Shown here piece by piece: positions 24,581 to 63,782 of a stretch of DNA of 64,000 nucleotides (positions are counted from its first letter, which is position 1; each line of letters begins with the position of its first letter). This DNA is from Promethearchaeota archaeon (GTDB lineage Archaea; Asgardarchaeota; Lokiarchaeia; Sigyniarchaeales; SOKP01), in NCBI GenBank assembly GCA_048937405.1, contig JBHLNF010000003.1, forward strand, positions 1-64,000, given 5' to 3'. Made by a program: the position numbers and the translations under genes. The notes under the pieces are model-generated. The model saw only the letters and a list, made by a program, of their open reading frames with translations. It made no database searches and was not told the DNA's origin.

Positions 24581-24730
24581 TTCTTTTTTTCTCTCAAATA
24601 AATAATTATTTTGAATTTTCTATTTATAATACTTTTACAACTTTATTTTCTTACTTCAATTTAATTACAGAAAATATTAAATATTATTTATGGTAATAAA
24701 ATTCAAGTCAACTAGTTTATATTTTTAATC

Positions 24731-25546: not shown

Positions 25547-25679
25547 GCTTTTAATTTTTTAATTATAGGAAAAAATAATTCAATTTCTCTAAATTACCAA
25601 TATTTTTTTTAAAAAGATATCATTTAATTTCAATTATCATTTTAAAAGAATTTCTCATGAAAGGAAAAAATACAGAAAG

Positions 25680-27125: not shown

Positions 27126-27132
27126 TGTTGAA

Positions 27133-27765: not shown

Positions 27766-27786
27766 GCTTAATACGGGTAAATAAAA

Positions 27787-27987
27787 TTATCTAAATATTT
27801 CTTGGATTAATCCTATATTTAATGGCAATAACAAAGCAATAATAAAGCCTAATAATATACTTAGAATCAAGAATCCATCTGATTTTTCTTTTAAATTCAA
27901 TAAAATTGTATATAAGAGTACAATTATCAATAAAAGAAGTTGCCCAAAAAAGATTATAATTAAAATTATTTGTGGGGTTAATATCAT
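27787..27987 (-). CDS. Small two-TM membrane protein
   Basis: 66 aa, two hydrophobic helices, AAGGA upstream, same strand as the upstream operon. Confidence 0.5.
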   Translation of the reverse strand: MILTPQIILIIIFFGQLLLLIIVLLYTILLNLKEKSDGFLILSILLGFIIALLLPLNIGLIQEIFR

Positions 27988-47326: not shown

Positions 47327-48250
47327 ATGGTACAATCCAATTCAGATCATAAAGAAATTCCTGAAGCAAATGTTATTAAAGAAGAAATTAAATTAAAATT
47401 ACATTTTTGGTTACCTGCGTTCTTCTTTATCTATTTTTGCTCATTTTTAATACCAGGTATAATTTTCATGCTCTATATAATGTTATTTTATTTACCATAT
47501 TTCTTAACAGAAACAGAATTTATTTCTCTTTTTACAAATTTTCCTTCTCTAATTGCCATAATAACAATTCCGTTTGTTATTATAATTAGCTATTTAATCC
47601 ATTTATTTATCGTAGCTATAATAACTCGATGGTTTTGGAGTTTTTCAGAAAAAAGATCACCGACTAAATCAGGAGTGATTCCTAGAAATATCCCAAGTAA
47701 AACTTTAAATTACTATCATTTTCGTAGTTTTATAATAAAATATCCAAAGAATGCATTTTCACGAGGTCCTTTTCCATGGTTATTAAAATGGATGTATAAC
47801 TTTACTAAGACAAACGTAATAGGAAAGGGATCTGTTATAGAGGAACAGCTTGCTGGAGATAGATTTGTAGAAATTGGGGAAAATTGTTACATTGGTACAA
47901 ATGCTGGTGTGAGTTCTCATACTGTTGAAGGTATTTTTGGTAATGTTTCATTTGCAAAAGTAAAAATGAGAAATAATTTCACTACTGCTGGTTTTAATTG
48001 TGTAGCTCCGGGGGTGGATACAGGCGATAATTCATGCTGGTTACCGATGACAGGAGCGACGAAATATAATATCTTGAAAGGAAATGGAGTCTATTTTGGA
48101 GTACCACTTAGGAGAATTTTTAAAAAAAAGATTATGGAGTACCTTCAAGTTACTGAGGATGATTTAAAAAGAGCAGAAAATCTAACTCAAAAGTTAAATT
48201 TATCACAAATTAAGAAAAAGAAAAAAAGAGAGAATATATTAAATGAGTGA
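47327..48250 (+). CDS. 2-TM + left-handed beta-helix protein, Pls/PosA C-domain-like unit A
   Basis: Two TMs, GVIPRN..NYYH.RS, hexapeptide repeats (IGKGSVI, IGENCYIG), SHTVEG, YFGVP. Confidence 0.7.
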   Translation: MVQSNSDHKEIPEANVIKEEIKLKLHFWLPAFFFIYFCSFLIPGIIFMLYIMLFYLPYFLTETEFISLFTNFPSLIAIITIPFVIIISYLIHLFIVAIITRWFWSFSEKRSPTKSGVIPRNIPSKTLNYYHFRSFIIKYPKNAFSRGPFPWLLKWMYNFTKTNVIGKGSVIEEQLAGDRFVEIGENCYIGTNAGVSSHTVEGIFGNVSFAKVKMRNNFTTAGFNCVAPGVDTGDNSCWLPMTGATKYNILKGNGVYFGVPLRRIFKKKIMEYLQVTEDDLKRAENLTQKLNLSQIKKKKKRENILNE

Positions 48251-49133
48251 AATTTTAGAAACGAATGAGACTGATAAGAATAAAATAGATTATACTGTTG
48301 ATTTTGTTACAAGTAGTGCTATCAGTCGAATTGGTATTAAATTTCTCGCTTTCTATATCCCTATCCTTTGGATGTCTGGATACATGGCGATTGCTGTGTT
48401 TTTTGACTTATCACGATATATTCCATGGTATATAAATTTGTTTTTACTACCTGTATGGTTATTCATTTTATACTTCATTTTTATATTTGGTATTGCGATC
48501 TTCACAAAAGCATTCATTCTTATAATCAATATGATTCATGAACCAAAAGAGGGTATTTTCAGAGCTGAAGAAGGTGACCAAGATTATGAATTTTGGAGAT
48601 TAAGAGTTGAACTTAAAAAATTAGTATTATGGTTTATGAGTAGAGGTCCTATTCCTTGGGTAGTAATGTGGGGATTTCGATGGCTAGGTGTCAGAATGGA
48701 CTTTTCAAGTCATGCTCAGGATGGTTGGGTTGATGGAGAATTTATTGAATTTGGAAGAAATGTTACTGTTGGTCAAGGAACCTGTGTAATGAGTTCAATG
48801 GTTGTAGGAAACTATTTGATAATCAAAAAAGTCATTTTGGGAGATCACACAGTGGTTGGAGGAATGTCAAATATATCTCCCGGTACTATAATGAGAAAAG
48901 AATCTGTTCTTGGTGGTTTTACTACTACCGTTCTTAACCAAATGATAGAACAATCATGGATTTATCTGGGGCAACCTATAGCAAGAAAATTAAAACCAAA
49001 TAAATATGCCGAACAAAGACGAGATATAATAATTAAAAAACAAGTTGATGAAGAAATAAAATACGAAGTTAAACAAGAAGTTAATATTGATGAAGATAAG
49101 AAAAAGTATTTGAATAATAATAGGGTGAATTAA
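48243..49133 (+). CDS. 2-TM + left-handed beta-helix protein, Pls/PosA C-domain-like unit B
   Basis: DFVTSSAISR, two TMs, PKEGIF..DYEFW, EFIEFGRNVTVGQG, WIYLGQP. Overlaps unit A. Confidence 0.7.
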   Translation: MSEILETNETDKNKIDYTVDFVTSSAISRIGIKFLAFYIPILWMSGYMAIAVFFDLSRYIPWYINLFLLPVWLFILYFIFIFGIAIFTKAFILIINMIHEPKEGIFRAEEGDQDYEFWRLRVELKKLVLWFMSRGPIPWVVMWGFRWLGVRMDFSSHAQDGWVDGEFIEFGRNVTVGQGTCVMSSMVVGNYLIIKKVILGDHTVVGGMSNISPGTIMRKESVLGGFTTTVLNQMIEQSWIYLGQPIARKLKPNKYAEQRRDIIIKKQVDEEIKYEVKQEVNIDEDKKKYLNNNRVN

Positions 49134-49137
49134 ATAA

Positions 49138-49986
49138 ATGTCTGTACCATCTAGTTTAAACGTTGGACCAAATACTACTCTTATACTAGTAAAGAAGAGA
49201 TACTTAATTTTTTATATATTTTTAATTTGGATAAGTATTTTTTCAATTCAATTTGAATTATGGTTGTTATGGAGACTTTATGAACCAAAATTTATTCATT
49301 TCATATTTTTCTTTCCACCTCTAATATTTATAATGTATTTAACATCTGTATTCGTTTCTTTGTTTTTTGCTAAACTTCTACTAATAATTATTAATTTAAT
49401 TCATAAACCCAAAGAAGGTGTCTTTCTTAGGCATCATTCTGATAAGGATTATAGATATTGGAGTTTGAGAAGTACAATAAAAAAGTGGCCATTATGGTTA
49501 TCTCATAAATTTCCCTTTCCATTTTTAGATAATATTTGTTTAAAAGTTTTTGGAGTTAAAACAAAATACTCAAATTCTCTTTTTGAAGGATTCATAGATA
49601 CTGAATTTATAGATTTTGGCAAGCACGTGATAGTAGGCCAAAGTGCTATAATCCAATCTGCACTTATAGTCGGAAATTTATTTATTTTAAGAAAAACAGT
49701 TATAGAAGACAATGCAGTAATTGGAGCTCATAGTGTTGTTATGCCAGGAACTCATATGAAAAAAAACTCTATTTTAGCAGGAAGTTCAATGACAACTGTT
49801 GGACAAAAATTAGAGGAGAATTGGATTTATTTGGGTGGACCTGCAAAAAAATATAAAAAAAATGTATTTTTAGAAGATGATTTAGAGGAAGTAATTAAAA
49901 AACAAATCGATGAAAAAATAAGATTGGATATAAAATCTGAAGGATTATATACACTAAGGAAAGATAAACAAGTAAAAATTGAATAA
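49138..49986 (+). CDS. 2-TM + left-handed beta-helix protein, Pls/PosA C-domain-like unit C
   Basis: Two TMs, PKEGVF..DYRYW, DTEFIDFGKHVIVGQ, IGAHSVVMPG, WIYLGGPAK. Confidence 0.7.
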   Translation: MSVPSSLNVGPNTTLILVKKRYLIFYIFLIWISIFSIQFELWLLWRLYEPKFIHFIFFFPPLIFIMYLTSVFVSLFFAKLLLIIINLIHKPKEGVFLRHHSDKDYRYWSLRSTIKKWPLWLSHKFPFPFLDNICLKVFGVKTKYSNSLFEGFIDTEFIDFGKHVIVGQSAIIQSALIVGNLFILRKTVIEDNAVIGAHSVVMPGTHMKKNSILAGSSMTTVGQKLEENWIYLGGPAKKYKKNVFLEDDLEEVIKKQIDEKIRLDIKSEGLYTLRKDKQVKIE

Positions 49987-49988
49987 TT

Positions 49989-50777
49989 ATGAAAATTGGC
50001 TATATTCAGACATCTCCTATTTTTGGGGATAAAGAAAGGAACATTAAACAAGTAGAACAATTAATATCTGAAACAACTGCTGATTTACTTGTATTACCAG
50101 AACTATTTGCAACTGGTTATGCCTTTACATCAAGAAATGAAGCATTATCATTAGCGGAAGATGAGAAGGGTAGAACTGCTAAATTTTTAATGAAATTAGC
50201 TAAAGACACGAAAGCAACCGTAGTTGGTGGTTATATAGAAAAATCAGGAGAAAAAATATATAATGCTGCTATGATTGTCTCAAGCAAAGAAGTGATAGGA
50301 ACATATCGTAAAATTCATTTATATTATAAGGAGAAACTATGGTTTTCTCCTGGAGATAAATCATTTCAAATATTTCGAATCAATGGGATTAATATTGGGA
50401 TAATGATTTGTTTTGATTGGATTTTCCCAGAAACTGTACGGTCTCTTGCTCTTTTAGGCGCAGAAATTATTGCCCACCCCGCAAATTTAGTACTTCCATA
50501 CTGTCAAAATGCTATGGTAACAAGATGTTTAGAAAATAGAGTATACGCTATAACTTCAAATAGGATAGGACGTGAAAAGCGAGGTTCAGATGATTTTAAA
50601 TTTACTGGACGAAGCCAAATAACTTCATATAATGGCGAAATTTTATCTTCAGGCCCAAAAGAGAAAAAATTTATACATGTTGTTGATATTGATATTGATA
50701 AAGCAAAAAATAAAAATCTCAATGATTTTAATAATTTATTTGAAGATAGACGTCCTAATTTTTATTTAAATATCTAA
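49989..50777 (+). CDS. Nitrilase/carbon-nitrogen hydrolase family protein
   Basis: Glu-Lys-Cys triad motifs LPELF, YRKIHL, ICFDW. Starts 2 nt after unit C. Confidence 0.93.
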   Translation: MKIGYIQTSPIFGDKERNIKQVEQLISETTADLLVLPELFATGYAFTSRNEALSLAEDEKGRTAKFLMKLAKDTKATVVGGYIEKSGEKIYNAAMIVSSKEVIGTYRKIHLYYKEKLWFSPGDKSFQIFRINGINIGIMICFDWIFPETVRSLALLGAEIIAHPANLVLPYCQNAMVTRCLENRVYAITSNRIGREKRGSDDFKFTGRSQITSYNGEILSSGPKEKKFIHVVDIDIDKAKNKNLNDFNNLFEDRRPNFYLNI

Positions 50778-50808
50778 AAAAGTAAAAAATAAAAAATAAA
50801 AAATTAAA

Positions 50809-51627
50809 TTATTGCGGTTGTAATATCCCTGAAAACGCTAACCATGCTAGCAATGATTTTGCTACTAGGCTTAAGACTATATAAATACGTTCACCGAAAA
50901 GATAATCCTTCCACTTGCCTATTCCTTTATATTGAAGTATTTGGTTAATGGCAAAACTATTAAACAATATCAGATAAGTATAAAATATCCAATATACAAA
51001 ATCAGGTATACCTTCCGCATCCACACCATAAAAGTAGCCTAAAATCACGATCCAAGGAATAGCGCCAGATATACATCCCAAAATGAAAGGCATCCAATTA
51101 GTTTTTTCAGTATATTGATTAACAAGCTCCATCATATATCCAAACATTATCATCATAGCATTCAATACAAAAATCATAAGCAGTGACCAGAACTCCCAAA
51201 CTCCAAAAAGCAACGATAGAAAAACAATCATAATTGAACTAGAAAAAGCATATTCGTACCAACGATATGGATTAAAACCCTTTTTCAAATTGTTATTATA
51301 CTTTTCATTCAAGGGATAAGCAATTAAGAAATGAGCTAAGGCAGATATTAATAAGAATGAAGCCAAAACTGCTCCAAAATATGAAACAGTAAATAATACC
51401 TGAGGATCTGGGTATATATTAAAAGAATCTGGTGGAACAATCTCATAAGTTAAATAAAAAGTATAAATATCTCTAGAGAAATCTAAAATAAGTCCTACAG
51501 TGAGCATTAGTATTCCTTGTATTAGGTGAAGGATTCCCATATTTCTGTTAAACTTTTGCAAATAATCGAAGGATATATTAGAATTAGCTATAATTTCTTG
51601 TCGTTCTTTAAAATTCATTTTAACCAT
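50809..51627 (-). CDS. Heliorhodopsin
   Basis: N..MGILHLIQG, SALAH, NPYRWYEYAFSSSIM, GERIYIVLSLVAKSLLAW with the retinal-binding Lys; 7 TM. Confidence 0.95.
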   Translation of the reverse strand: MVKMNFKERQEIIANSNISFDYLQKFNRNMGILHLIQGILMLTVGLILDFSRDIYTFYLTYEIVPPDSFNIYPDPQVLFTVSYFGAVLASFLLISALAHFLIAYPLNEKYNNNLKKGFNPYRWYEYAFSSSIMIVFLSLLFGVWEFWSLLMIFVLNAMMIMFGYMMELVNQYTEKTNWMPFILGCISGAIPWIVILGYFYGVDAEGIPDFVYWIFYTYLILFNSFAINQILQYKGIGKWKDYLFGERIYIVLSLVAKSLLAWLAFSGILQPQ

Positions 51628-51818
51628 ATTTTTTTTAATTTAAAATTTCTAATTTTAATTATTCAGAGCTCAAACTTAAATTATCTTTCTAGAAATTATT
51701 AAAATTTCATTTTAATTAGTTTTAGAATAAACGAATTTAGGGCAAATTTATAATGATTAATTAATAAATCAAAAAATAAAGTACTAGTTATCATAATTAT
51801 TAAGTACTTTTTAGATAT

Positions 51819-51841
51819 TCATTAGGTTTAAAACCTAATGA
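51819..51841. promoter_or_regulatory. Perfect inverted repeat (11-bp arms), candidate operator or terminator hairpin
   Basis: TCATTAGGTTT-A-AAACCTAATGA between the Prx-like gene and heliorhodopsin. Confidence 0.45.
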
Positions 51842-51920
51842 TATATTGATATGGAAAAGTGTGGCTAACTTTAAAGAATAAAATCTCATTTTTTATTATT
51901 TTATTCTCACCAAATCATTA

Positions 51921-52394
51921 TTAATTGTTAATTTTTTTAAGAATTTTTAAAATTTCATCGTTTTCCGGGATATCATGCATATTTTTTCCATAATATGCAT
52001 ATTGAATAATCCCTTTCTTGTCAATTATTAATAGTCCAGGCATTCGACCCAATTTAATCCACCTTTTTTCTTGTTTTAACATCGTAGAAACTTTCTTTGA
52101 CTCATCATAAAAAATAGCATATTTTCGCGCATATTTCTGTTCCATTTTTTTTGCATTTTTTTCATTATCTACCAAGATTGGATATAAGAAAGTATCTAAA
52201 TTTTCAAATTTATCAATATCTCTTCTTAATCTAGCAGCATGCCATCGACAAAATGGTCAATTGATATCTCTAAATAACACAATCACAACGTTTTTTTTAT
52301 TTTCAAAATCTCTAATATTTAATGTTTCACCTCTAGAATTTGGCAGACTAAATTCATCGATTCTAGTACCAACTAAATTGAATTTATCTTTCAA
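51921..52394 (-). CDS. AhpC/TSA (peroxiredoxin-like) protein with in-frame TGA in a UxxC motif: probable selenoprotein (157 aa, U46)
   Basis: Manual translation from TTG 52394: MKDKFNLVGTRIDEFSLPNSRGETLNIRDFENKKNVVIVLFRDIN-TGA(52257..52259)-PFCRWHAARLRRD..., continuing in frame into the listed 84-aa ORF (..MPGLLIIDKKGIIQYAYYG..DIP). Confidence 0.85.
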
Positions 52395-52578
52395 TTTGAT
52401 ATCTCTTTGGTTTTTATTTATTTTTTTGATAAAAAAAGATCAAAATGATTTAATAATATCTCTATTAAGAATTATAAACTTCAACTCCTAAAATAAAATC
52501 ATGATTATGAAACAAAACCATAGATAAAATAATAACTCTAGATTATTTTTATTGTTTCATTTTTATTTTTAGCGGGAT

Positions 52579-54231
52579 TCAAGCTTCTAAAACATAAAGT
52601 GGCCATTTTTTTAAAACACCTTTAGGATTTTTCCCACTTCTGACTTTCTCTAACATCTCAGAACGTGTAGCTAAGAAGTCAACTGGATTATTCTTAATTA
52701 ATTCTATTTCTATATCATTATTCAAGATAGCTTCTTTAAAATTTTCATTTCTAATACATTCAAGTAAGACTTTCTTATAGCTATTTAAATCAGAACAATT
52801 TTTTTCTTTATTACTATAAAGAAATAATTTCAAACTATTTTTGACAGAATTTTTATAATTTACTAATAATAGGGAATCAATATTTAAGATACAATTTTCC
52901 TTCAAACAATTTAATAATAAACGAGGATTTATAATTTCGAAATCAGGAAAATTGAAATAATCACCAGCAAAAACTTTATAATACGATTTAATATCAATTT
53001 CTTTTAATAGTTTTATAGGATATTTTAATTCAAAAGTTGAACGTAAAATAGTTCCATCTATTTGAGGTAAACCTTCCTGATTTTTTATCGAAATAACATC
53101 ACCCATGTCTATATTAATTAAAACTCTTGAGTTATTAAGCCTAGAAACATAAAGCTTGCCAAATTCATTTTTAGTTCTAGAAATTAAAGCTTTTCTTCCT
53201 TTATATTCTAATACTGGAAGTGTTAAAGGAAAAATGTACATCCTGTTTAAACGTGATAATGTAAAATCACCTTCATTTATACTAGCAGCAAATGGTCCTA
53301 TTTCAGAGGCTACATAAAGATTAATAAATTTTTCTTGACCTTTCTCCCAATTCATTAATTTTCTAATTAATTTCCAATCAAATTCAGAGAGTGAGCTTAT
53401 ACTGAATATTAAGGTAGCATTCCTTATTTTTTCAGATAATCTTTTTTGAATATCTTTTGAAATAGAATCTATTCCCTTTTTTTTTATGTCGAGTAAAAAT
53501 TTCTCCGTAAGAGGATTGTCGGTTTGTTTTATCGAATTAAGTGAACTTTTTAATCCAATTTTAAGTCTGTTAATATCTGCCCATCCCAAGATAGTTATAG
53601 CAGGAGCGGAAATAACGGAGACATTCTCAATCATTAAAATATTAGAAAGGATCTCTAAATTCTTTGAATTTTTGTATTCATAAAAAGAATAAGACTGTGG
53701 CTTAATAATAGAGAGCATTATTCGTTGGGAAAATTCTGAAGAATAAAGTGACACATATTCTTTATCTTCATACTTATTAAATCCATCAAATTTAAGGCGT
53801 GATGGGACAAAAATAATAGCTGATGATCTAGAATTTAATCCACTTGATTCAAAAATTGCTTGCATTCCAGGAGCCCATTGCCTTTTTACGATATCATGTG
53901 CCATATAGAACCATTTTAACATAGATAAATTACTATTAGTAGTACCTGAAGTATGACAGAAAATTAAAGGACTAAAATCGTCGGTTCTATCTAAAAATTT
54001 TTTTAAATCTATCGAAAAATGGCTAGAAGAAGTAGTTTCAATTTTTACTTTTTCTATAATATCTTCAACAGATGATAATCCTGAAAGATTCAATGCTAAT
54101 TCTTCATATTCTTCTTTAGAACGAATTTCCAGCCAATCTCGCCAACTTACTGACTTAATGTTTGAAAAAGAAGCATTAAAGGCTTCTTGAACTTTAACAT
54201 CAAAATCAAATGAGTTCAAAATATTCTCCAA
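52579..54231 (-). CDS. GH3/LuxE/PaaK-like ANL adenylate-forming enzyme
   Basis: P-loop HTSGTT, LYVASEIGPF (GH3-like YxxSE), IDMGDVI (GD motif). Confidence 0.6.
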   Translation of the reverse strand: MENILNSFDFDVKVQEAFNASFSNIKSVSWRDWLEIRSKEEYEELALNLSGLSSVEDIIEKVKIETTSSSHFSIDLKKFLDRTDDFSPLIFCHTSGTTNSNLSMLKWFYMAHDIVKRQWAPGMQAIFESSGLNSRSSAIIFVPSRLKFDGFNKYEDKEYVSLYSSEFSQRIMLSIIKPQSYSFYEYKNSKNLEILSNILMIENVSVISAPAITILGWADINRLKIGLKSSLNSIKQTDNPLTEKFLLDIKKKGIDSISKDIQKRLSEKIRNATLIFSISSLSEFDWKLIRKLMNWEKGQEKFINLYVASEIGPFAASINEGDFTLSRLNRMYIFPLTLPVLEYKGRKALISRTKNEFGKLYVSRLNNSRVLINIDMGDVISIKNQEGLPQIDGTILRSTFELKYPIKLLKEIDIKSYYKVFAGDYFNFPDFEIINPRLLLNCLKENCILNIDSLLLVNYKNSVKNSLKLFLYSNKEKNCSDLNSYKKVLLECIRNENFKEAILNNDIEIELIKNNPVDFLATRSEMLEKVRSGKNPKGVLKKWPLYVLEA

Positions 54232-54349
54232 AATAGTAATCTATATTCCAGATAATATAACAATCATATGTGTGATTATTTCTTTTATCTAATAGAATTA
54301 ATAAAGAAAATAAAAATTAAATTGTTTTTTCAAGTATAATTTATAGAAA

Positions 54350-54880
54350 TCAATTAATTCCATATAAACCAGTCTCAGAATCTTGAAAAATTGGCAAGTG
54401 TGGTGGTAGATAGGTAAAAATTATCATTAGTAATCCTAACCCTACAATAACTAGCCAGGAAACAATATTTATCCATTTGGGAAGTGTATCTAAGCTAATA
54501 ATTCTATAACTAATCAATTGACCAATAATAACACCTATAAAAAAACTTAATATATCGATTATAAGAATTTCAGTACCTATTATTGCTGTATAAGTATAAA
54601 AGACAATTAAAATTGTACCAATACTTATTAATGCAGACAGAGCTTTTCCAATTATTATATTGTTTGCTTTATCTTTTATAAAATGACATTCTATTAAAGA
54701 AAGAAAGATTAAAGGCCAATAGGGAAGTTTTAAATGTTCCCATACGCTTTCATTGACAGGAGCAATTGCTCCAATAGGGGACCAAGAAAAAAGCCATTCG
54801 AATAGAAAATGGAACAAAGTACCAGTAATTAATATAAAGATTATACCAGCAATTTCCCATTTTAGTATACTGTTTTTCAT
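54350..54880 (-). CDS. Conserved membrane protein (NESVWEHLKL motif, DUF6512-like)
   Basis: About 5 TMs; GTLFHFLFEW, VNESVWEHLKL, PIFQD..GLYG. Confidence 0.7.
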   Translation of the reverse strand: MKNSILKWEIAGIIFILITGTLFHFLFEWLFSWSPIGAIAPVNESVWEHLKLPYWPLIFLSLIECHFIKDKANNIIIGKALSALISIGTILIVFYTYTAIIGTEILIIDILSFFIGVIIGQLISYRIISLDTLPKWINIVSWLVIVGLGLLMIIFTYLPPHLPIFQDSETGLYGIN

Positions 54881-55157
54881 TTTTCAATCAATATTATTGT
54901 AATTCAATTTAAAAAATTCTCATAAATAGATTATAATAAGAAATATACCAAAACTCTGATAATCTAAAACAGAATTTGTTTAAAAAAAATTTGGTTTTAT
55001 CTTAATAAAAAATATCTAACAGAAAGTTTATTATAATCAGAGTTTATTGTAATTATTTTATAATTTATATTTCAATTACTTAAAGCCTAAGAAAAGAGAA
55101 ATAATAAGAGAAAAAAATCATTTAAGGATATAAGGTAGGAAGCAAATTTTATAAATA

Positions 55158-55654
55158 TCAGATTTTTTCATATCTTTCAACTTCTACTTTCCCCCACGCT
55201 TCGAATTTCTTGTCCAATTCATCAATAAAGTTGTATATCGTTTCTTGATTAATGATAAGGATGTCGTTATCAATCTTGAACCCATATTCTTTTGCCCATT
55301 CAAATATTTTTGAATTAAATTCATCTTTATTCATCAGGAGAGGGCATTTCTCATCATTTCAAGGTTTAGTTTTGAAGATATACTCGTCATTTCTCTCAAC
55401 TTTTCTAAAATCTTCTTGTCCTTTTTTCTTTCAATTCTTTATTTTACTTCCCCCTCTGGAGATTTTACCTTGACGAAAAAATCACCCTCAATTACAAAAC
55501 CATATTCCATTGCCCATTTGAGAATTTTGACATCAAATAATCTTTGATAATCTGGAATTTTATAATCAATATTAAGATACTTTTTCATCAAGTTAATATT
55601 AATTCTGTCAGATGTCCGGAACATTTCTTTTGCTTTTTTTTCTAATTCTGTCAT
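55158..55654 (-). pseudogene. Disrupted gene with two tandem copies of a small helical domain (WAxEYGFxIxxD)
   Basis: After the TAA at 55439..55441 the same frame continues (RIERKKDKKILEKLREMTSISSKLNLEMMRNAL). A frameshift near 55340 then leads to MNKDEFNSKIFEWAKEYGFKIDNDILIINQETIYNFIDELDKKFEAW..KI*. Compare the first copy, KILKWAMEYGFVIEGD. Confidence 0.65.
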
Positions 55655-55956
55655 TTTTCAATTTAAGTAAAATTTATTTTACTATTTATTAATTAAATAT
55701 ATCTAACGTATATAAAAGTTAGTTTAAGGGTGTAATACATTATTAGAACTCATATGATTACCTACTAATTCAAGTATATTTCTAAAGAACAGTGTTTGAA
55801 TTCTAACATCTACTCTCTGTGTGGTAATCTATGCTTTATCTCAACAAAAAAGTTCTAATTGAAAAATAATGTAATTAGATTTTATTTGGATTACTTTCTA
55901 ATTTATACTTTAAGTATCAAAAATCTAAAAAAAATTGAAGTAGTTTAAGAAAAAAT

Positions 55957-56163
55957 TCATTTATGGATATTAACATTTTTCTTTAAATCATTTAATGCTG
56001 TTATTATAATTTCCAATATTGTTTCTCTAACTTTTGGATTTCCCTCGGTAAAATTCTTTATCTTGGAAACTATATCATCTATAAAATTCATTTGTTCGTA
56101 ATTTAATCCCATCATTTCCGCCTTTTTCACGATTTCAATCAAATTTTTTCTGTTTTATGCCAT
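55957..56163 (-). pseudogene. Small hypothetical gene, possibly with a premature stop at codon 3
   Basis: ATG GCA TAA AAC AGA AAA AAT TTG ATT GAA..: an ATG at 56163 is in frame with the listed TTG-start 61-aa ORF but separated from it by TAA. Confidence 0.35.
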
Positions 56164-56320
56164 CAAATCATAAACTAGAATATTAATAAATATAGATATA
56201 ATGTTTTAAATTTTTTTCTCCTCAATTAATAAAATTTTCACGATAAAAGCGTATTAATAAGGTAATCGAAGTAGAAATTTGTATAGTTCAAAAACATAAC
56301 AAATTTTTTTGATCTTACGA

Positions 56321-57286
56321 TTATGGTGTTAATTTATGTAACCCCTGTGAGAAAATCTTTTCTTTATACCATGATATTTGATTTCGAAGTACCGCTTCCA
56401 AACTAGTATGAGGTTCATAACCCAATATCTGCCGGGCTTTATTAATATTAGCTCGAGTATGTAACTGATCTCCTGGTCGTTTAGGTTTCATATCAAAACG
56501 AGCTTTTTTTCCCATTATTTTTTCAACAATAGTGATACCTTCCTTGGTTGTGATTTCTTTATCAGAACCAATATTAAAAATCTCGCCAATACATTTTTCA
56601 GGATGCTTAAGAACTAATAAAAAACCAGTCAAGATATCGGAAATTGCTGTATAACTACGTGAGTGACTTAGACTATCTTCATATAATGGAAAAGGCTCAT
56701 CTATTAAAATAGAACGTATAAGCTTTGTGTATAACTTCTCTGGTCGCTCACGTGGACCTAGAACTGAGAAGATTCTTAAAGAACATGCAGGTAATCCTTT
56801 TTCTCTTTGATAGACTAAAACTAATTGTTCAGCGGCTAATTTAGTAACACCATAGTATGAAGTCGGTTTTGGAGCACTATCTTCCGCATCATATGCAAAT
56901 TTACCATAAATGGATGATGTAGCAACATTGACAAAACATTTTAAACCAGAGAGAAATTTTACAGCCTCCAGTAATTTATAAGTTGCATTTAAGTTATTGC
57001 GTACATATTCTTCATATGCAGTTGTGCTTGAAATACCAGGTTGAGCAGCTAAATGAAAAATAAACTGGACATTTTTAACAACATCAGATAAATCATCACT
57101 AACTAAATCAATTTCTAAAATCTGTACACCTTTAGCGGAAATTTCTTCCGCATTAAGACGTTTTAATTCAGGAGCGTAATATGGATTGAAATTGTCAATA
57201 CCTATGACTTCATGCCCCATTTCGGATAAAGTTTCAGATAAGTGAGAACCTATAAATCCTGCAGCACCAGTAACAAGAATTTTCAT
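56321..57286 (-). CDS. NAD-dependent nucleotide-sugar epimerase/dehydratase (UDP-glucuronate epimerase-like)
   Basis: TGAAGFIG, HLAAQPG, TSSIYG, YGVTK, GPRERP, RPGD. Confidence 0.9.
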   Translation of the reverse strand: MKILVTGAAGFIGSHLSETLSEMGHEVIGIDNFNPYYAPELKRLNAEEISAKGVQILEIDLVSDDLSDVVKNVQFIFHLAAQPGISSTTAYEEYVRNNLNATYKLLEAVKFLSGLKCFVNVATSSIYGKFAYDAEDSAPKPTSYYGVTKLAAEQLVLVYQREKGLPACSLRIFSVLGPRERPEKLYTKLIRSILIDEPFPLYEDSLSHSRSYTAISDILTGFLLVLKHPEKCIGEIFNIGSDKEITTKEGITIVEKIMGKKARFDMKPKRPGDQLHTRANINKARQILGYEPHTSLEAVLRNQISWYKEKIFSQGLHKLTP

Positions 57287-57462
57287 AATTCAATCGTATT
57301 TAATTTAAAAAGTATTTATATCTTACTTTTAATAATTTAAAGAAAGTCAAAAAGATAATGTATTACAATTTGGATAATAAATTAAATATTTTTCAGAAAA
57401 TATTTAAAATTCTTTCCTTCTTGATTTAATCTATTATCATATTTTTTTGGTAACCCTAAATA

Positions 57463-58470
57463 ATGAAGGCTGCTGTATTTAATGGGAAAGAAATAACGAT
57501 AAGAAATGTATCTGAACCTAAAATAAAAGGCTCTGAAGTTTTGGTTCGTGTTAAAGTAGCTGGAATCTGTGGTACAGATCTTGCTATCGTTAATGGAGAT
57601 CTCCCAACACCAACTCCAATTATTTTAGGGCATGAATTTGTTGGTATAGTTGAAAAAGTAGGTAAGGATGTTGATAAATCTTGGATAAATAAGAGAATAA
57701 CTTCAGAAATTAATACTAATATTGATTTTAACTGTTATTATTGCAAATTAGGGTTATATACTCAATGTGTTTCTCGTAAGGCGATTGGAATTGATATTAA
57801 CGGTGCTCTAGCTGAATATATTGCTTTAGAATCATACTTATTACATGAAATTCCAGATTCTATTTCAGATGATGATGCTACATTTATTGAACCTCTTGCT
57901 GCCGCCTTCCAAACCTTCGAAATGATGCCTATAGGTGAAGATGATAACGTTATCGCTATTTTTGGGCTTGGTAAGCTTGGATTATTGATAAGTCAAGTCG
58001 CTAAATTAAAAGGATTAGAAATAATTGCGGTGGATGAGTCAGAAAGGAAATTAAAGTTAGCAAAAAAATTGGGAGTTAAAGAAATAATTAATAGATTACA
58101 GGAAAAAAACATTCCGAAAGTAATACAAAACTTCACAAATGGGCTAGGAGCAGATATTGTGATAGATGCGACAGGTAATCCGAATGCATTAGGGGAAATA
58201 GTTGCTTCTTGTAGAACGAGAGGAAAAATACATATAAAAAGTACACATGGTTTAGAAACACCTATTAATCTCACTGATATTGTTGTAAGAGAATTAACTC
58301 TTTATAGTAGTAGATGTGGTCCATTTGATAAAGCTATAGAGGGAATAAAATCGGGAAAAATAAAAGTTAATGAATTAATATCTAAGAAATTTCAATTAAA
58401 TAATATAAAAGAAGCCATTGAATCTTATAAAATAAGCAAGGATCATATTAAGACGATAATTCAAATATAA
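57463..58470 (+). CDS. Zinc-dependent medium-chain dehydrogenase (threonine/sorbitol dehydrogenase-like)
   Basis: GICGTD, GHEFVG, CYYC..C, EPLA, GLGKLG. Confidence 0.9.
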   Translation: MKAAVFNGKEITIRNVSEPKIKGSEVLVRVKVAGICGTDLAIVNGDLPTPTPIILGHEFVGIVEKVGKDVDKSWINKRITSEINTNIDFNCYYCKLGLYTQCVSRKAIGIDINGALAEYIALESYLLHEIPDSISDDDATFIEPLAAAFQTFEMMPIGEDDNVIAIFGLGKLGLLISQVAKLKGLEIIAVDESERKLKLAKKLGVKEIINRLQEKNIPKVIQNFTNGLGADIVIDATGNPNALGEIVASCRTRGKIHIKSTHGLETPINLTDIVVRELTLYSSRCGPFDKAIEGIKSGKIKVNELISKKFQLNNIKEAIESYKISKDHIKTIIQI

Positions 58471-58587
58471 AGCTTATGTATTCTTACCAGTTTTAGTTAA
58501 AATTTAAATTTAGAAAAAAAAACATTGAATTTTTTAGAAACAAACTCTTAATTACTAATAATATAGTAAAATCAATGATTTTATAGA

Positions 58588-60414
58588 ATGCAAAAAGTTG
58601 TACAACAATCATCAGAAAGTATTTCAAAAGAAGATGTTCCAAAAGAAGAAATAAAATTTCAATACTTTTGGTATCTAGTTATTTTTTTTACAATATACTT
58701 AATATCGTTGATAGTACCCGCATTTATATTCATGACTTATATATTCCTCTTTTTTTTACCATATTTTTTAAAAATTAGAAATTTTTTTACTCTTTTTACT
58801 GAAATTAATTCAATTATAGCTTTAGTATCGATGCCATTAATTATCATTGGTTGTTATTTTATTCGATTGTTTTTAATTGGATTCATTACTCGTGGATTTT
58901 GGACTTTAAGCGAAAAAAAATCACCAAGCAAAAATGGTATAATACCTAGGAATTTTTCGAGTAAAACATTGAATTATTACCACATTAGAAGCATGATGAT
59001 TAAATACGGAAAGAATATGTTTACTAAAGGAATTCTACCATGGTTTAGTAATTGGTTTTTTAACTATGTGGGATCAATTAAAATTGGAAAAGGTACAACT
59101 TTAGAAGAAAGTATAATGAATGATAAATTTGCTATTGTTGGAAATAATTGTTATTTTGGCGTCAATTCTGCTTTAGCTAGTCATATGGTAGACGGTACTC
59201 TTGGAAATATTAATTATTTCCAAGTAAAGATCGGAGATAATGTAACAACTGCAGGAACAAATCTAATAGCAGCGGGATCAGAGGTAAATGGGAATTCCTA
59301 TTTACTTCCTTTAGCTTCAACTGGTAAACACAGTATGATAAAGAAAGAAAATAATTATTTTTTTGGAATCCCTATGAGAAGAATTTTCAGAAAGAAATTG
59401 ATGAAGTATTTAGATTTAACTCCAAGACATTTTGATATTAATGAAAATATTGAGAAGTACAGGGATAAAAAAACAATAAATAAATTAAAAACTGAGATAA
59501 ATAATATTAGACCACAACCTGAGAGTAAACTTAAAATTGAGAAGTCTCAAGAAGAAAAAATTGATATAAATAAGTTGACTGAAAATGATTTAAAAATTGA
59601 TTTTACAACAAGTAGTGCCATTTCAAGAGTTAATATTAAATTCTTAGCGGTATATCTTCCAATTTTTTGGCTTTCTGGAATGGTAGACACTATAGTTTTC
59701 TATACATTTATATATTATGTTCCAAATGGTTTTTTAATGGCATTTTTTCTTCCAGCAATGATAATTATTATGTGGTTTGTATTTATTATGGGTTGTTTCT
59801 TTTTTAGCAAACTATTTTTAGTGTTGATAAATTTAATCCATAAGCCAAAAGAAGGCATATTTAAGGCAGAAATTGGAGATACTGATTTTGAATTTTGGTG
59901 TTTGCGTACTGAATTAAAAAAAATTGTTCTGTGGCTCATAAGAAATTGGCCTATTCCTTGGATGGATATTTTAGCTTTTAAATGGTTTGGAATAAAGATG
60001 ACTTTAAACAGTTCATTATATGATTCATGGTGTGATGGTGAGTTTATTACATTTGGTCGAAGAGTTTTGGTGGGTCAAGGAGCTTCTATAAATTCTTCTA
60101 TGGTATTAGGAAAGTACTTAATTATAAAAAGAGTAATATGTGGTGATTATTCTCTTATTGGTGGACAATCCACAATCTCACCTGGTAGTATCATAGGGAA
60201 GGAAACATTTGTTAGTGCGATTTCAAATACTGTTTATAATCAGGTACTTGAATCGGGCTGGCTCTATATGGGAATTCCAGTTACAAAATTAAAAAGAAAT
60301 AAATATGCTAAAGAAAGAAGAGATATAATCATAAAAAGAGATATAAATGAACAAATGAAATTTGAAATCGAACATGAAGTAAATGTTGATGAAGATAAGA
60401 ATCATGTGGCATAA
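58588..60414 (+). CDS. Fused Pls C-domain-like units A+B (4 TM, two left-handed beta-helices)
   Basis: N-half matches 47327..48250 (GIIPRN..NYYHIRS, SHMVDG). C-half matches 48243..49133 (DFTTSSAISR, PKEGIF..DFEFW). Confidence 0.72.
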   Translation: MQKVVQQSSESISKEDVPKEEIKFQYFWYLVIFFTIYLISLIVPAFIFMTYIFLFFLPYFLKIRNFFTLFTEINSIIALVSMPLIIIGCYFIRLFLIGFITRGFWTLSEKKSPSKNGIIPRNFSSKTLNYYHIRSMMIKYGKNMFTKGILPWFSNWFFNYVGSIKIGKGTTLEESIMNDKFAIVGNNCYFGVNSALASHMVDGTLGNINYFQVKIGDNVTTAGTNLIAAGSEVNGNSYLLPLASTGKHSMIKKENNYFFGIPMRRIFRKKLMKYLDLTPRHFDINENIEKYRDKKTINKLKTEINNIRPQPESKLKIEKSQEEKIDINKLTENDLKIDFTTSSAISRVNIKFLAVYLPIFWLSGMVDTIVFYTFIYYVPNGFLMAFFLPAMIIIMWFVFIMGCFFFSKLFLVLINLIHKPKEGIFKAEIGDTDFEFWCLRTELKKIVLWLIRNWPIPWMDILAFKWFGIKMTLNSSLYDSWCDGEFITFGRRVLVGQGASINSSMVLGKYLIIKRVICGDYSLIGGQSTISPGSIIGKETFVSAISNTVYNQVLESGWLYMGIPVTKLKRNKYAKERRDIIIKRDINEQMKFEIEHEVNVDEDKNHVA

Positions 60415-60429
60415 TAAATCGTTTAGATT

Positions 60430-60825
60430 TTAGTTTATTTTTAAATTTAATTGCTTTTTTAAAAAACTCTTTAAATTTTGGCAATTAAGTTTGTATTCTT
60501 TTCTGTTTTTATAAAAAAGATTAGTTCTTGGGCAATCCTTATCAAGTGTGCATTTCTTTTTGCTAGTGTCATAAATCATTGGATAGAATCTACATCCCTG
60601 AGGTCGAGATTTATAAATCTTACATTTCATTAAGTTATTGTCAAAAAAGACGCATTTTTCTATAGAATTTTTTAACTGAAAAAAACCATTTTGATTTTTA
60701 AAGATGAATTCTTCCTCTTCTAATTTTTTTGGATAGTTTTGGATTATTAAATCAATATCCTGCTGAGATAAAATCATTTCTGTATTGATACAGCATTTTC
60801 CACAAGACTCACATTTGTTTTTCAT
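60430..60825 (-). CDS. YkgJ/UPF0153 family cysteine-cluster protein
   Basis: CESCGKCC, CVFF..CKIYKSRPQGCRFYP. Confidence 0.88.
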   Translation of the reverse strand: MKNKCESCGKCCINTEMILSQQDIDLIIQNYPKKLEEEEFIFKNQNGFFQLKNSIEKCVFFDNNLMKCKIYKSRPQGCRFYPMIYDTSKKKCTLDKDCPRTNLFYKNRKEYKLNCQNLKSFLKKQLNLKIN

Positions 60826-60957
60826 TGTAAATTATTATTTTTGTGTTAATTTAATAAATTTTAAAGGAAGGTAAATATCTAGTAAAATATAATAATTATT
60901 AATTGCTTTTTAATTGAGTAAAATATAATCTAAAATGACAATTAAGACAAAAAAGTA

Positions 60958-62829
60958 ATGAACAGAGAAGATAAAGAAACGAAAACTCTTGAAGATGAAG
61001 AAAACACTGATGAAGTATTAAAAGAAGAAGTTAGTCTACAATTTCATTTATATATTTTTATTTTTGCTATAATTTATTATGTCTCATGGATATTACCTGG
61101 ATTTCTTTTTTGGTTTTATTTTATGATACCATTTCGCATATTTTTTCTTGAAAATTTGAATTTTTTCTCAATTTTTATAAATATTAATTCTCTGATAACT
61201 CTATTATTAATGCCAATTGTCCTTATTAGCTGTTATCTCCTCCATTTGTTATTAATTGGTTTAACAACACGTATTATTTGGCAAATTACTGAAAAGACTT
61301 CACCATCAAAATCAGGTGTTATACCAAGAAATATTAGAAGTAGAGCCGCAAATTATTATCATATTAGGAGTTTTATGATCAAATATGGAAAAAATACTTT
61401 TACTAAAGGAATGTTCCCTTGGTTATCTAATTGGTTTTTTAGTACAGTCGGTTCAAACAAAATTGGTAAAGGTACAACAATAGAAGAGTCTGTAGGTAAT
61501 GATAAATTTATTGATATTGGAAAAAATTGTTATGTTGGTGTAAATTCTACATTAGCGAGTCATTTACTTCAAGGAATCTTTGGCAATATTACTTATTTTG
61601 AGATTAAGGTAGGAGATAATGTTACAACTGCTGCGATGAATCAGGTTGGTCCAGGAACAGAACTAAATGATAATACTTTTTTATTACCATTAGCTTCTAC
61701 AAATAAACATAGTATTGCCAAGGGAGGTTATTATTATGGGATTCCATTTAGAAAGATCTTTAGAAAAAAAATTATCAATTATCTAGAATTATCACCTAAG
61801 GATTTGGAAAAGAACGATAATATTGAAGGATATAAGGATAAAAAACTCATTAAGGAACTTAAAAAAAAGAAATCTTTGGAAAAAGAAACTGATTCTAATC
61901 TTAGAGATGTGGGTGTAATATCTGAGGAAACGGAAAAACAATTCGAGTTTAATAAATTCTCAAATGAAGATTTAGCTATTGATTTTGCCACTAGCTCAGC
62001 AATAAGTCGAATCAATATAAAGTTTTTAATTGTATATTTACCACTCTTATGGGTTGCTGGATTAATAACTACAATAATTTGGTATTGGTATTCTGAAAAT
62101 GTACTGAGCACAATGAAATTTCGATTAGAATTTTTCCTTTTCTTTCCATTAATTTTATTCGGTCTAATATATATATTTATTGTTGCATGCTTGGTTTTTA
62201 GTAAGCTACTTTTATTGTTAGTTAATCTCATTCATAAACCTAAGGAAGGAGTATTTAAAGCTAAAAAAGGAAATACTGACTATGAATTTTGGATATTGAG
62301 AACAGTTTTAAAAAAAATTGGTTTATGGTTTATGAGAAATTCTCCTTTACCTTGGACTGATGTAGTTGCTTTAAAATTATTTGGGGTTGATATGGATTCA
62401 TCAAGTCATTTACCTGATGCGTGGTGCGATTCAGAATTTATAAAATTTGGCAGAAAGAACCTAATTGGTCAGGGTGCTTTAATAATGTCAAGTATGGTAA
62501 TTGGAAAATATTTACTAATAAAAAAGGTTTTTTTTGATGATTACGTAATGGTTGGTGGTCATACAACAATTTCTCCAGGTACAATTATAGGTAAAGAATC
62601 TGTAATAGGTGCTCTTAGTTCCACAACATATAATCAAGTTTTAGAGTCAGGATGGGTTTACTTTGGATTTCCAGCAATTAAGTTAAAAGAAAACAAGTAT
62701 GCAGAAGAAAGGAGAGATATTATCATCAAACGTGATGTAGATGAATCAAAAAAATTTACGGCAACACATGAAGTAAACATTGATGAAGATAAAAAAGAAT
62801 TAATAAAAACTCAAAAAGAAGAGGTATAA
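60958..62829 (+). CDS. Fused Pls C-domain-like units A+B, second copy
   Basis: GVIPRN..NYYHIRS, SHLLQG, DFATSSAISR, PKEGVF..DYEFW, WVYFGFPA. Confidence 0.72.
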   Translation: MNREDKETKTLEDEENTDEVLKEEVSLQFHLYIFIFAIIYYVSWILPGFLFWFYFMIPFRIFFLENLNFFSIFININSLITLLLMPIVLISCYLLHLLLIGLTTRIIWQITEKTSPSKSGVIPRNIRSRAANYYHIRSFMIKYGKNTFTKGMFPWLSNWFFSTVGSNKIGKGTTIEESVGNDKFIDIGKNCYVGVNSTLASHLLQGIFGNITYFEIKVGDNVTTAAMNQVGPGTELNDNTFLLPLASTNKHSIAKGGYYYGIPFRKIFRKKIINYLELSPKDLEKNDNIEGYKDKKLIKELKKKKSLEKETDSNLRDVGVISEETEKQFEFNKFSNEDLAIDFATSSAISRINIKFLIVYLPLLWVAGLITTIIWYWYSENVLSTMKFRLEFFLFFPLILFGLIYIFIVACLVFSKLLLLLVNLIHKPKEGVFKAKKGNTDYEFWILRTVLKKIGLWFMRNSPLPWTDVVALKLFGVDMDSSSHLPDAWCDSEFIKFGRKNLIGQGALIMSSMVIGKYLLIKKVFFDDYVMVGGHTTISPGTIIGKESVIGALSSTTYNQVLESGWVYFGFPAIKLKENKYAEERRDIIIKRDVDESKKFTATHEVNIDEDKKELIKTQKEEV

Positions 62830-62834
62830 TTATA

Positions 62835-63782
62835 ATGAGTGTACCAAATACAATGAGAGTAGGACCTTTTACACCCACAGTGTTAGTAAAAAAAAGATAT
62901 TTAATATTCTATTTTTTCTTAATTTGGATAAGTATTATCCCTATCCTTTTAGAATTTTGGGTATATTGGCATTTTCTATGGAGTTATGAAAGACCCATTC
63001 ACTTCTATACTTTTCTCCCCCTTTTATTTTTTGGAATGTATGTATCAATAGTATTTTTCTCTATTTTTTTTGCTAAAATATTGTTAATAATAGTTAATGC
63101 AATACATAAACCACGAGAAGGTATATTCTTACGCATTCCAGAAGATAGAGATTATAGATACTGGAGTCTTCGAAATACAATTAAACGATGGCCTATTTGG
63201 CTAGCACATAAATTTCCATTTCCTTTCTTAGATAATATCTGCTTTAAAGTATTCGGCGTAAAAACGAAGTTTTCAAATTCCCTTTTTGAAGGATGGGTTG
63301 ATACAGAATTTATAGAATTTGGCAAAGATGTTGTAGTTGGGCAGGGTGCAATTGTCCAATCGGCAGTAATTATTGGGAATTTATTGATAATTCGAAAAAC
63401 TGTGATTGAAGATGATGTAAGGATTGGCTCACACGCAATAGTTATGCCTGGTACTCATATTGGAAATAAATGTATCTTAGCAGCTAATTCTGTAACAACA
63501 GTTGGACAGGTTTTAGATAAAAATTATGTATATGTAGGTATTCCAGCAAAAAAGTTCAAAAAGAACTATTTCTTTGAAGATGGATTGGAAACCAAAATTG
63601 GTTACGTAGAAGATATCGAAAAATTACGAGAAAAATATGAGGAGATTTATACAAAACGTTATGATGAACTTACTCGCAAGGATCGTAGAGAATTAAAAAG
63701 AGAAAAAAAAGAGGGAGAAAAAAAGAGATTTGATACTGAGCAAGAGGAATGGGAAGATCCTGATGATGGTTTCAATATATAA
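62835..63782 (+). CDS. Pls C-domain-like unit C, second copy
   Basis: Closely matches 49138..49986 (MSVP...VGP, LVKKRYLIFY, DYRYWSLR, HKFPFPFLDNIC). Confidence 0.72.
   Translation: MSVPNTMRVGPFTPTVLVKKRYLIFYFFLIWISIIPILLEFWVYWHFLWSYERPIHFYTFLPLLFFGMYVSIVFFSIFFAKILLIIVNAIHKPREGIFLRIPEDRDYRYWSLRNTIKRWPIWLAHKFPFPFLDNICFKVFGVKTKFSNSLFEGWVDTEFIEFGKDVVVGQGAIVQSAVIIGNLLIIRKTVIEDDVRIGSHAIVMPGTHIGNKCILAANSVTTVGQVLDKNYVYVGIPAKKFKKNYFFEDGLETKIGYVEDIEKLREKYEEIYTKRYDELTRKDRRELKREKKEGEKKRFDTEQEEWEDPDDGFNI

Follow-up and report, generated by a model that had tools for sequence, protein, structure and literature searches.

Introduction

The closest described systems to the one treated here are the terminal domains of the Pls/PosA family of nonribosomal peptide synthetases (NRPS), for which an AlphaFold model of PosA has six bent membrane helices under three left-handed beta-helix (LbH) domains in an approximate threefold packing (PMC10522769). 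We analyzed a window of 64,000 nucleotides (nt) from a Promethearchaeota archaeon (Asgardarchaeota; contig JBHLNF010000003.1, positions 1 to 64,000) in which six genes encode related units of three types, here named A, B and C. These genes specify a split, multi-copy relative of the Pls terminal domain that lacks the adenylation (A) and thiolation (T) domains and most likely forms an A·B·C pseudo-trimer with one active site. Two further LbH systems are of use for comparison. The maltose and galactoside O-acetyltransferases (MAT/GAT) are soluble homotrimers with three active sites, without membrane helices or degenerate subunits, and use a coenzyme A (CoA) thioester as donor. The gamma-type carbonic anhydrase (CA) and CA-like (CAL) subunits CA1, CA2 and CAL of mitochondrial complex I form a membrane-attached LbH heterotrimer of paralogues, in which active-site residues are not kept in all subunits.

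Similarly to Pls/PosA, the Asgard repeat unit is composed of a long membrane helix pair, a helical linker and a five-turn LbH ending in aromatic-G-x-P, and three units are predicted to join in a pseudo-threefold assembly with one His-bearing unit of three (THLFED in unit 3 of Pls and SHTVEG in type A of the Asgard proteins). Unlike Pls/PosA, the Asgard units have no A and T domains, are encoded by separate genes or two-unit fusions and not as one chain, reside in an archaeal host at four to six sets per genome, score far under the family cut-off and appear to have arisen as triads independently, from single-unit ancestors. The LbH part resembles MAT/GAT, the closest solved structures, and YvoF (heptaprenylglyceryl phosphate O-acetyltransferase, NF058585), a top NCBIfam model, and the His of the A unit is in the loop of the MAT/GAT catalytic His; by contrast, MAT/GAT cover only about half of the Asgard unit. 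The proposed complex would be similar to CA1/CA2/CAL as an LbH heterotrimer of paralogues with some units degenerate, but the chemistry of the complex I type is the zinc hydration of CO2, for which the ligands are absent in the Asgard units, and it has no such paired membrane helices.

Six genes carry eight copies of one module

The six predicted open reading frames (ORFs) are present, all on the + strand (Table 1), and together account for eight copies of one module. The overlap between A1 and B1 is 8 nt, while gaps of 4, 2 and 5 nt separate B1 from C1, C1 from a carbon-nitrogen (C-N) hydrolase gene and AB3 from C3, respectively. When the two long proteins (AB2 and AB3) were split mid-way and the resulting eight units were compared by BLASTP, three types were obtained, with identities of 44-54% within A, 50-57% within B and 63% within C. 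Between types, identity was 34-40% for B versus C and 17-28% for A versus B or C (E values of 1e-5 to 1e-16), far above chance.

Each unit starts with two hydrophobic stretches of about 38-40 residues that are joined by a short, K/R-poor loop of 0-6 residues, and the segment after the second transmembrane (TM) helix (TM2) is K/R-rich. The linker has the motif H-x-P-K-E-G-x-F ... D-Y-x-F-W-x-L-R ... P-x-P-W in B and C and S-P-x-K-x-G ... N-Y-Y-H in A. Hexapeptide repeats follow the linker in every unit, and the end of the unit is aromatic-G-x-P. Consistent with this architecture, an AlphaFold model of A1, with a predicted local distance difference test (pLDDT) of 81.8, has helices at residues 25-60 and 72-108, two linker helices and then beta coils. 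By Pfam analysis, only hexapeptide repeats (PF00132/PF14602) were detected in the units, with B3 and C3 above cut-off; PP-binding domains were absent from the six proteins, and no AMP-binding or AA-adenyl domain was matched in any of them. No defence-system family of PADLOC was matched by any unit or neighbour. AB3 had 419 homologues, with identities of 60-87% among those listed, and the listed homologues of C3 were 70-96% identical; in the database these proteins are labelled Promethearchaeota/Lokiarchaeota and related names, and the DNA occurs in sediment metagenomes. No fused relative of AB3 longer than 1091 amino acids (aa) was found, which by the tool's own note is weak evidence. Taken together, the ORF check, BLASTP comparison and motif alignments agree with the original prediction of six genes that share a module and fall into three types.

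The module is related to the Pls/PosA terminal domain

Among NCBIfam models, TIGR02353 (Pls/PosA terminal domain) was the top match for C3 and near the top for the B and C units, at E values of 2e-4 to 2e-13. The window proteins scored 19.7-49.6 bits on this model, with no score for A1, compared to a cut-off of 423.1 bits and to 471-616 bits for genuine members. A profile built from 11 B/C-type units of the same genome was searched against 1.84 billion representative proteins. By this approach, 5712 proteins were found at E<=1e-3 and 782 at E<=1e-10, and the profile reached three synthetases with adenylation domains (P0391, P0383 and P0354) at E values of 1e-23 to 1e-26. P0391 (1462 aa) and P0383 (1713 aa) scored 571 and 471 bits on TIGR02353, both above cut-off, and P0354 (1711 aa) scored 201 bits on the terminal-domain model, under the cut-off. 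The match to P0383 spans profile positions 18-257, or nearly the whole module.

An A-type profile was also aligned by hhalign to 12 Pls units with a probability of 98.1% and an E value of 8.9e-14 over 172 columns, extending from TM2 to the C-terminal G-x-P and placing SSHTVEG of A1 on QTHLFED of Pls unit 3. The B/C profile aligned to the LbH part of Pls at an E value of 1.2e-20. When the A1 model was compared with the ESM Atlas, the nearest non-Asgard clusters were named Pls/PosA family NRPS or bore PP-binding domains, and the TM-score by query to the Pls/PosA clusters was 0.60-0.64 over 230-240 residues, membrane helices included, with 0.63 over 230 residues for one Pls/PosA cluster. A fold search of the Protein Data Bank (PDB) with the same model gave 177 matches at E<=0.001, of which the 50 listed were nearly all LbH acyltransferases or gamma-carbonic anhydrases; the best were maltose/galactoside O-acetyltransferases, with the LbH part only and a TM-score by query of 0.26-0.42. 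No solved structure of a Pls-type terminal domain was found by sequence in the PDB copy searched.

Thus, by profile search, hhalign and fold match, the predicted kinship of the module with the Pls terminal units extends over the module length. The contrary outcomes, i.e., ordinary sugar O-acetyltransferases with no TIGR02353 similarity, failed heterotrimer models or a lack of co-occurrence of A, B and C, were not found. Literature searches revealed no description of stand-alone or split Pls-like units. One protein, P0350, was considered as a full TIGR02353 protein without A and T domains and was rejected, as its cluster has a 1342-aa member and the source labels it partial.

Only the A unit bears the conserved His

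An alignment was made of 66 units from the Asgard proteins, five Pls-type proteins, five bacterial triple-unit proteins and 16 single-unit proteins. The His column was filled in 16 of 16 single-unit proteins, usually as H-x-[IV]-E. In the Pls proteins the His was present in unit 3 only, and in the bacterial triple-unit proteins it was in unit 2 in all five, with one protein (tri4) alone having it also in units 1 and 3. In the Asgard triads the His was found in A only (SHTVEG type), with an acidic or amide residue three positions on. This His is invariant in 28 A-type sequences, which include paralogues 23-33% identical to A1, and in 37 AB fusions. It is in the same loop as catalytic His115 of Escherichia coli galactoside acetyltransferase, within about 4 residues. 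B and C are without the His yet strongly conserved. The restriction of the His to type A, as originally predicted, is thus upheld by the alignments and by its invariance.

Since only A keeps the His that is common to all sampled single-unit relatives, the complex would have one active site, as had been proposed and similarly to Pls with its His in unit 3. This pattern is most naturally read as the conversion of a three-site homotrimer into a one-site pseudo-heterotrimer. With two of three units devoid of catalytic residues, and with gamma-carbonic-anhydrase models and complex I CA/CAL subunits among the sequence matches, the complexes might alternatively be non-enzymatic membrane assemblies with a structural or regulatory role, for which the gamma-carbonic-anhydrase-like heterotrimer of mitochondrial complex I and the LbH subunits of eIF2B and dynactin are precedents. 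We find this very unlikely, as the A-unit His does not vary even among distant paralogues and matches the His of all sampled single-unit relatives and of Pls unit 3. Furthermore, alignments of all three types show no conservation of the three His residues that bind zinc in gamma-carbonic anhydrases; an identity of the units as such enzymes was rejected on the same ground.

A, B and C are predicted to assemble

We infer heterotrimer assembly from computational evidence of several kinds. The fusions found are A-B in the window, C-A on contigs C19 and C25 of the same genome and C-A-B in a further Asgard sequence (P0245); none departs from the cyclic order A>B>C. The split operon has the order A-B-C in 4 of 4 genera examined. 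Three tandem units in one chain were not found in the window, where the units are split or in two-unit fusions. Units were counted at 12 (3+3+3+2+1) in three complete genomes of other genera and at 16-17 in the genus of the window (g1), and A-type units make up about one third of the total in 9 of 10 genomes.

Complex modelling was performed for AB3 (residues 20-605) with C3 (residues 1-262). With our own alignments as input, the ipSAE of this pair was 0.85 compared to 0.00 for the best of 3 controls; among 80 solved complexes 58 come up to the mark applied, and among 110 mismatched pairs 2 do so. Contacts agreed between runs in at least 86% of cases, with a partner pLDDT of at least 84. The modelled interface would be formed by membrane helices (AB residues 63-90 with C residues 23-66), by the LbH faces and by N-terminal arms that are specific to each type and invariant within it, namely TSSAISR in B and residues 1-17 in C. 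The predicted A·B·C heterotrimer is consistent with the fusions, unit counts, constant gene order and complex model.

LbH enzymes are classically homotrimers, and single-unit relatives are found in other Asgard families and in Thermoplasmatota. A, B and C could thus each be homotrimeric, acting as independent membrane acetyltransferases or as regulators with different substrates, a possibility with which AB2 (no C gene) and a lone A-like gene on contig C20 would be in keeping. This we regard as quite improbable. A covalent AB or CA fusion needs a third unit to complete a simple threefold LbH trimer; the His kept in all sampled single-unit proteins is lost from B and C, and yet these are the most conserved units; and gene order, translational coupling, unit counts in threes and the complex model all favour joint assembly. 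In the A·B·C heterotrimer that we prefer, some sharing or exchange of subunits among sets, as first proposed in the original prediction, is plausible because AB2 is without its own C and because in one genome (G071; L005:9163-11042, +) a tandem pair of A genes precedes B and C genes that are present once each. This G071 arrangement suggests alternative catalytic subunits for one B·C pair. As the Pls building block is present here in the form of separate small proteins that can be expressed, mixed and mutated singly, the roles of catalytic and degenerate units are directly testable.

Triads are found in one Asgard family

The window holds only part of the set encoded by its genome (4.47 Mb, 29 contigs), which has 17 units in total. 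Two further triads are on contigs C19 and C25, in each case as a C-A fusion gene with a B gene after it; contig C28 has a pair of units, and contig C20 has the lone A-like gene. None of these loci has neighbours in common with the window cluster. The C28 pair (524216-527425, -, equal to L003:6217-9426) is a conserved TM-LbH pair with a gene for a 531-aa calcineurin-like phosphoesterase 6 nt later; its counterparts in G049 and G077 are open frames of 780 aa with one in-frame stop and may be fused, or nearly so, in those genomes.

Co-occurrence of A, B and C was surveyed in 81 Asgard genomes of 21 GTDB families. At E<=1e-20, A-type genes were detected in G000 and in 8 of 9 other genomes of the window's family and in no other family searched. 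With the B/C profile, 2-17 units per genome were detected in 9 of 9 other genomes of this family; four other Asgard families had 1-5 single-unit genes (about 250 aa) at dispersed sites, and the remaining 16 families searched gave nothing. Triads were thus found only in one Asgard family among those searched, with the split A-B-C operon present in four genera. The presence of 12-17 units per complete genome, kept at 60-96% identity, suggests that they are likely to matter for the Asgard membrane or cell surface.

Triads appear to have arisen independently of Pls

Relationships among the units were examined by a quick maximum-likelihood tree that has SH-aLRT (approximate likelihood-ratio test) support only, long branches and no root. 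On this tree, all 20 Asgard units formed one clade (91) inside a group with single-unit proteins (95), while the 15 Pls units grouped together (89), as did the 15 bacterial triple-unit domains (93). Within the Asgard clade, A (98), C (95) and B (86) were separate groups. As the Asgard units are one clade among single-unit archaeal proteins, A, B and C would not be counterparts or orthologues of the Pls domains C1, C2 and C3 but products of a parallel triplication. The equivalence of A, B and C to C1, C2 and C3 in the original prediction is thus supported neither by the quick tree nor by the TIGR02353 scores (20-50 compared to 423 bits).

The nearest relatives on this tree are single-unit TM-hairpin/LbH proteins of Thermoplasmatota (the only named ones) and of other Asgard families, which share the module and the P-K-E-G-x-F motif after TM2. 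Unlike the triads, these are encoded as one unit per gene at dispersed sites, all those sampled have the His, and they are presumably homotrimers with three sites; their annotation is 'DapH/DapD/GlmU-related' or hypothetical only. The claim of a new system is accordingly narrowed: the module itself is widespread, with relatives elsewhere that lack A and T domains and are of the single-unit kind in archaea and the triple-unit kind in bacteria.

Triplication appears to have been independent in three lineages, i.e., Pls, the bacterial triple-unit family and the Asgard family. The data suggest three separate conversions of a homotrimeric membrane LbH enzyme into a one-site pseudo-heterotrimer, which would be a clean case of repeated subunit specialisation. 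The bacterial family (P0304, P0305, P0333, P0343 and P0319) consists of three-unit TM-LbH proteins of 650-680 aa without A and T domains, one member of which is labelled Elusimicrobiota. P0319 has an N-terminal short-chain dehydrogenase fused to the three units.

Proposed reaction and donor supply

The explanation we favour, as probable though far from assured, is a membrane-anchored A·B·C pseudo-trimer with one His site in A that functions as an acyl (or aminoacyl) transferase, likely with a CoA-thioester donor. One A, one B and one C, whether separate or as AB, CA or CAB fusions, would form one membrane-anchored complex of pseudo-threefold symmetry, with a bundle of six long membrane helices topped by the trimer of LbH domains, which would be cytoplasmic, as suggested by the K/R-rich segments after TM2 and the short, K/R-poor loops between the helices. 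The roles of B and C, conserved but non-catalytic, would be to complete the trimer and probably to shape the substrate site. On an acceptor located at the membrane or within it, a hydroxyl or amine would be activated by the A-unit His for attack on the thioester donor, with acyl (or aminoacyl) transfer as the result. Weak hints of a membrane-lipid acceptor are provided by two genes that adjoin units in other genomes, one for a DUF1295 protein (like steroid reductases and isoprenylcysteine carboxyl methyltransferase, ICMT) and one for a VTT/DedA-domain protein. The DUF1295 gene (L013:8843-9676, +) is between AB and A-B-C, and the VTT/DedA gene (L010:6627-7532, -) is upstream of A.

As predicted, no A-T didomain was detected, either in the six genes or in the rest of the genome. 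All genome-wide matches to PF00550 (PP-binding) fell within a single frame of 3512 aa on contig C22, and the cut-off for NRPS-type A domains was not reached, so a Pls-type carrier-bound donor is unlikely. The donor is most likely a CoA thioester, since the genes are without adenylation or carrier domain and the genome is without a free carrier protein. Carriers and CoA also have the phosphopantetheine moiety in common, and for this reason too a CoA thioester would be the simplest donor. The C22 frame itself (~24037-27987, -) has three tandem PP-binding domains and two phosphopantetheinyl-transferase matches and looks like a megasynthase of the type I polyketide synthase, fatty acid synthase or polyunsaturated fatty acid synthase kind in an Asgard archaeon.

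In some genera, the CoA thioester may be made by a linked ANL-type enzyme. The window encodes a 550-aa protein that had no Pfam or NCBIfam match and for which a sequence profile had no match in the PDB. Its Atlas model was matched to clusters of the phenylacetate-CoA ligase (PaaK)/CapK type (TM-scores of 0.58/0.71), and our own model from 5 sequences, although poor (pLDDT 62), still had GH3 and PaaK as top PDB matches. The motifs HTSGTT, YVASE, NIDxGD and GKxPKG, which we read as ANL core motifs, are kept in five orthologues. Orthologues are 42-70% identical and occur in two Asgard families; the gene is linked to TM-LbH genes in genera g1 and g4 (two of four genera). The enzyme is a candidate supplier for window-type sets only.

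The free-standing adenylating enzyme bears on whether the triads are functional equivalents of the Pls/PosA polymerising domain, i.e., catalyze iterative amino acid addition to a chain that is exported as a poly(amino acid) or polyamide, with a monomer activated in trans and carrier-free. The Pls acceptor chain is non-covalently held and diffusible (PMC9205021), which fits such a scheme, as do the kinship of the whole unit with Pls/PosA units, the single-His layout common to both, the complete ANL adenylating enzyme in the cluster of two genera and the C-N (amide) hydrolase translationally coupled to C1. By contrast, the Asgard units are not orthologues of C1-C3 and group with single-unit archaeal proteins on the quick tree, their TIGR02353 scores are far below the cut-off with no carrier domain available, the ANL gene was not found in a genus that keeps triads (g2), the presence of four to six paralogous sets in a genome is more in line with diversified modifying enzymes than with a single polymer synthase, and the nearest solved LbH domains are single-transfer O-acetyltransferases. 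We hold polymerisation of this kind to be fairly unlikely. Less likely again, in our estimate, is a carrier-free three-subunit Pls-like polymerase that is fed by the free-standing GH3/PaaK-like enzyme and makes a poly(amino acid) or amide-linked envelope polymer, with a different product made or decorated by each set. The polyamide product of the original prediction is pure conjecture; the closest solved LbH domains are those of acetyl-CoA-dependent maltose/galactoside O-acetyltransferases, and nothing yet points to a polyamide over single acyl transfer.

Several observations weigh against the transferase pseudo-trimer that we favour. The membrane part taken alone has no significant direct match to Pls: membrane and linker parts gave no TIGR02353 match when searched against NCBIfam, and with a hidden Markov model (HMM) made from the N-terminal part, a single-unit protein reached 30 bits and Pls was not matched. 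Because of this, the link of the membrane part to Pls rests on the A-type hhalign result, the fold match and transitive hits via single-unit proteins. The complex-model score may be partly inflated because soluble LbH homotrimers are abundant among solved structures, and close paralogues could also pass the mark. Stoichiometry is not strictly 1:1:1 at every locus, as is evident from AB2 and from the tandem A genes of G071, and a set composed of a C28-type pair and the lone C20-type gene would have the His in two of its units. Finally, the ANL enzyme was rejected as an obligate partner: its gene was not found in g2 (genomes 98-100% complete, with triads present and RtcB in its place), and in family f18 it is located away from any TM-LbH unit.

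Features and neighbours of the window

Table 1. Genes of the TM-LbH cluster and its neighbours in the 64,000-nt window.
Feature	Coordinates	Strand	Details
A1, type A unit (two TM helices, linker and LbH)	47327-48250	+	Candidate catalytic His198, codon 47918-47920
B1, type B unit	48243-49133	+	SSMVVG, no His at catalytic column
C1, type C unit	49138-49986	+	QSALIVG, no His at catalytic column; TIGR02353 match, E 7.6e-8
C-N hydrolase, Nit/nitrilase family, fourth gene of the A-B-C run	49989-50777	+	PF00795, E 5e-45
ANL-superfamily (GH3/PaaK-like) adenylating enzyme, 550 aa, candidate donor activator in trans	52579-54231	-	Assigned by fold and motifs
DUF6512 membrane protein, most constant neighbour of A-B-C	54350-54880	-	PF20122, E 2.5e-34; adjoins cluster in G049, G071 and G030
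Zn-dependent alcohol dehydrogenase family protein, recurrent neighbour	57463-58470	+	Adjoins cluster in G071, G065 and G049
AB2, A-B fusion without its own C gene	58588-60414	+	Candidate His199, codon 59182-59184; same arrangement in G049
CxxCxxCC (PF03692) protein between AB2 and AB3, recurrent neighbour	60430-60825	-	Also in G049, G065 and G071
AB3, A-B fusion	60958-62829	+	Candidate His202, codon 61561-61563
C3, type C unit, partner of AB3	62835-63782	+	Top NCBIfam match TIGR02353, E 4.7e-10

The best NCBIfam match of the C-N hydrolase was an archaeal nitrilase model at 300 bits, under the 500-bit cut-off. Its gene adjoins C in G049 and G071, is close downstream in G008 and is not at this position in G040, G030 and G019. 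In G071, which is of another genus, the cluster is compact, with ANL and DUF6512 genes on one strand and A, A', B, C, the C-N hydrolase and the Zn-dehydrogenase on the other. C3, AB3, CxxCxxCC, dehydrogenase and ANL genes are side by side in G065.

Two other genes of the window were noted. A complete heliorhodopsin (50809-51627, -; PF18761, E 1e-93) is encoded right after the A-B-C-hydrolase run on the opposite strand and is also found near cluster remnants in G049 and G040. A B12-type ribonucleotide reductase (42955-46695, -) is interrupted by an intein with an HNH nuclease, and the orthologous frame in G030 is 1600 aa.

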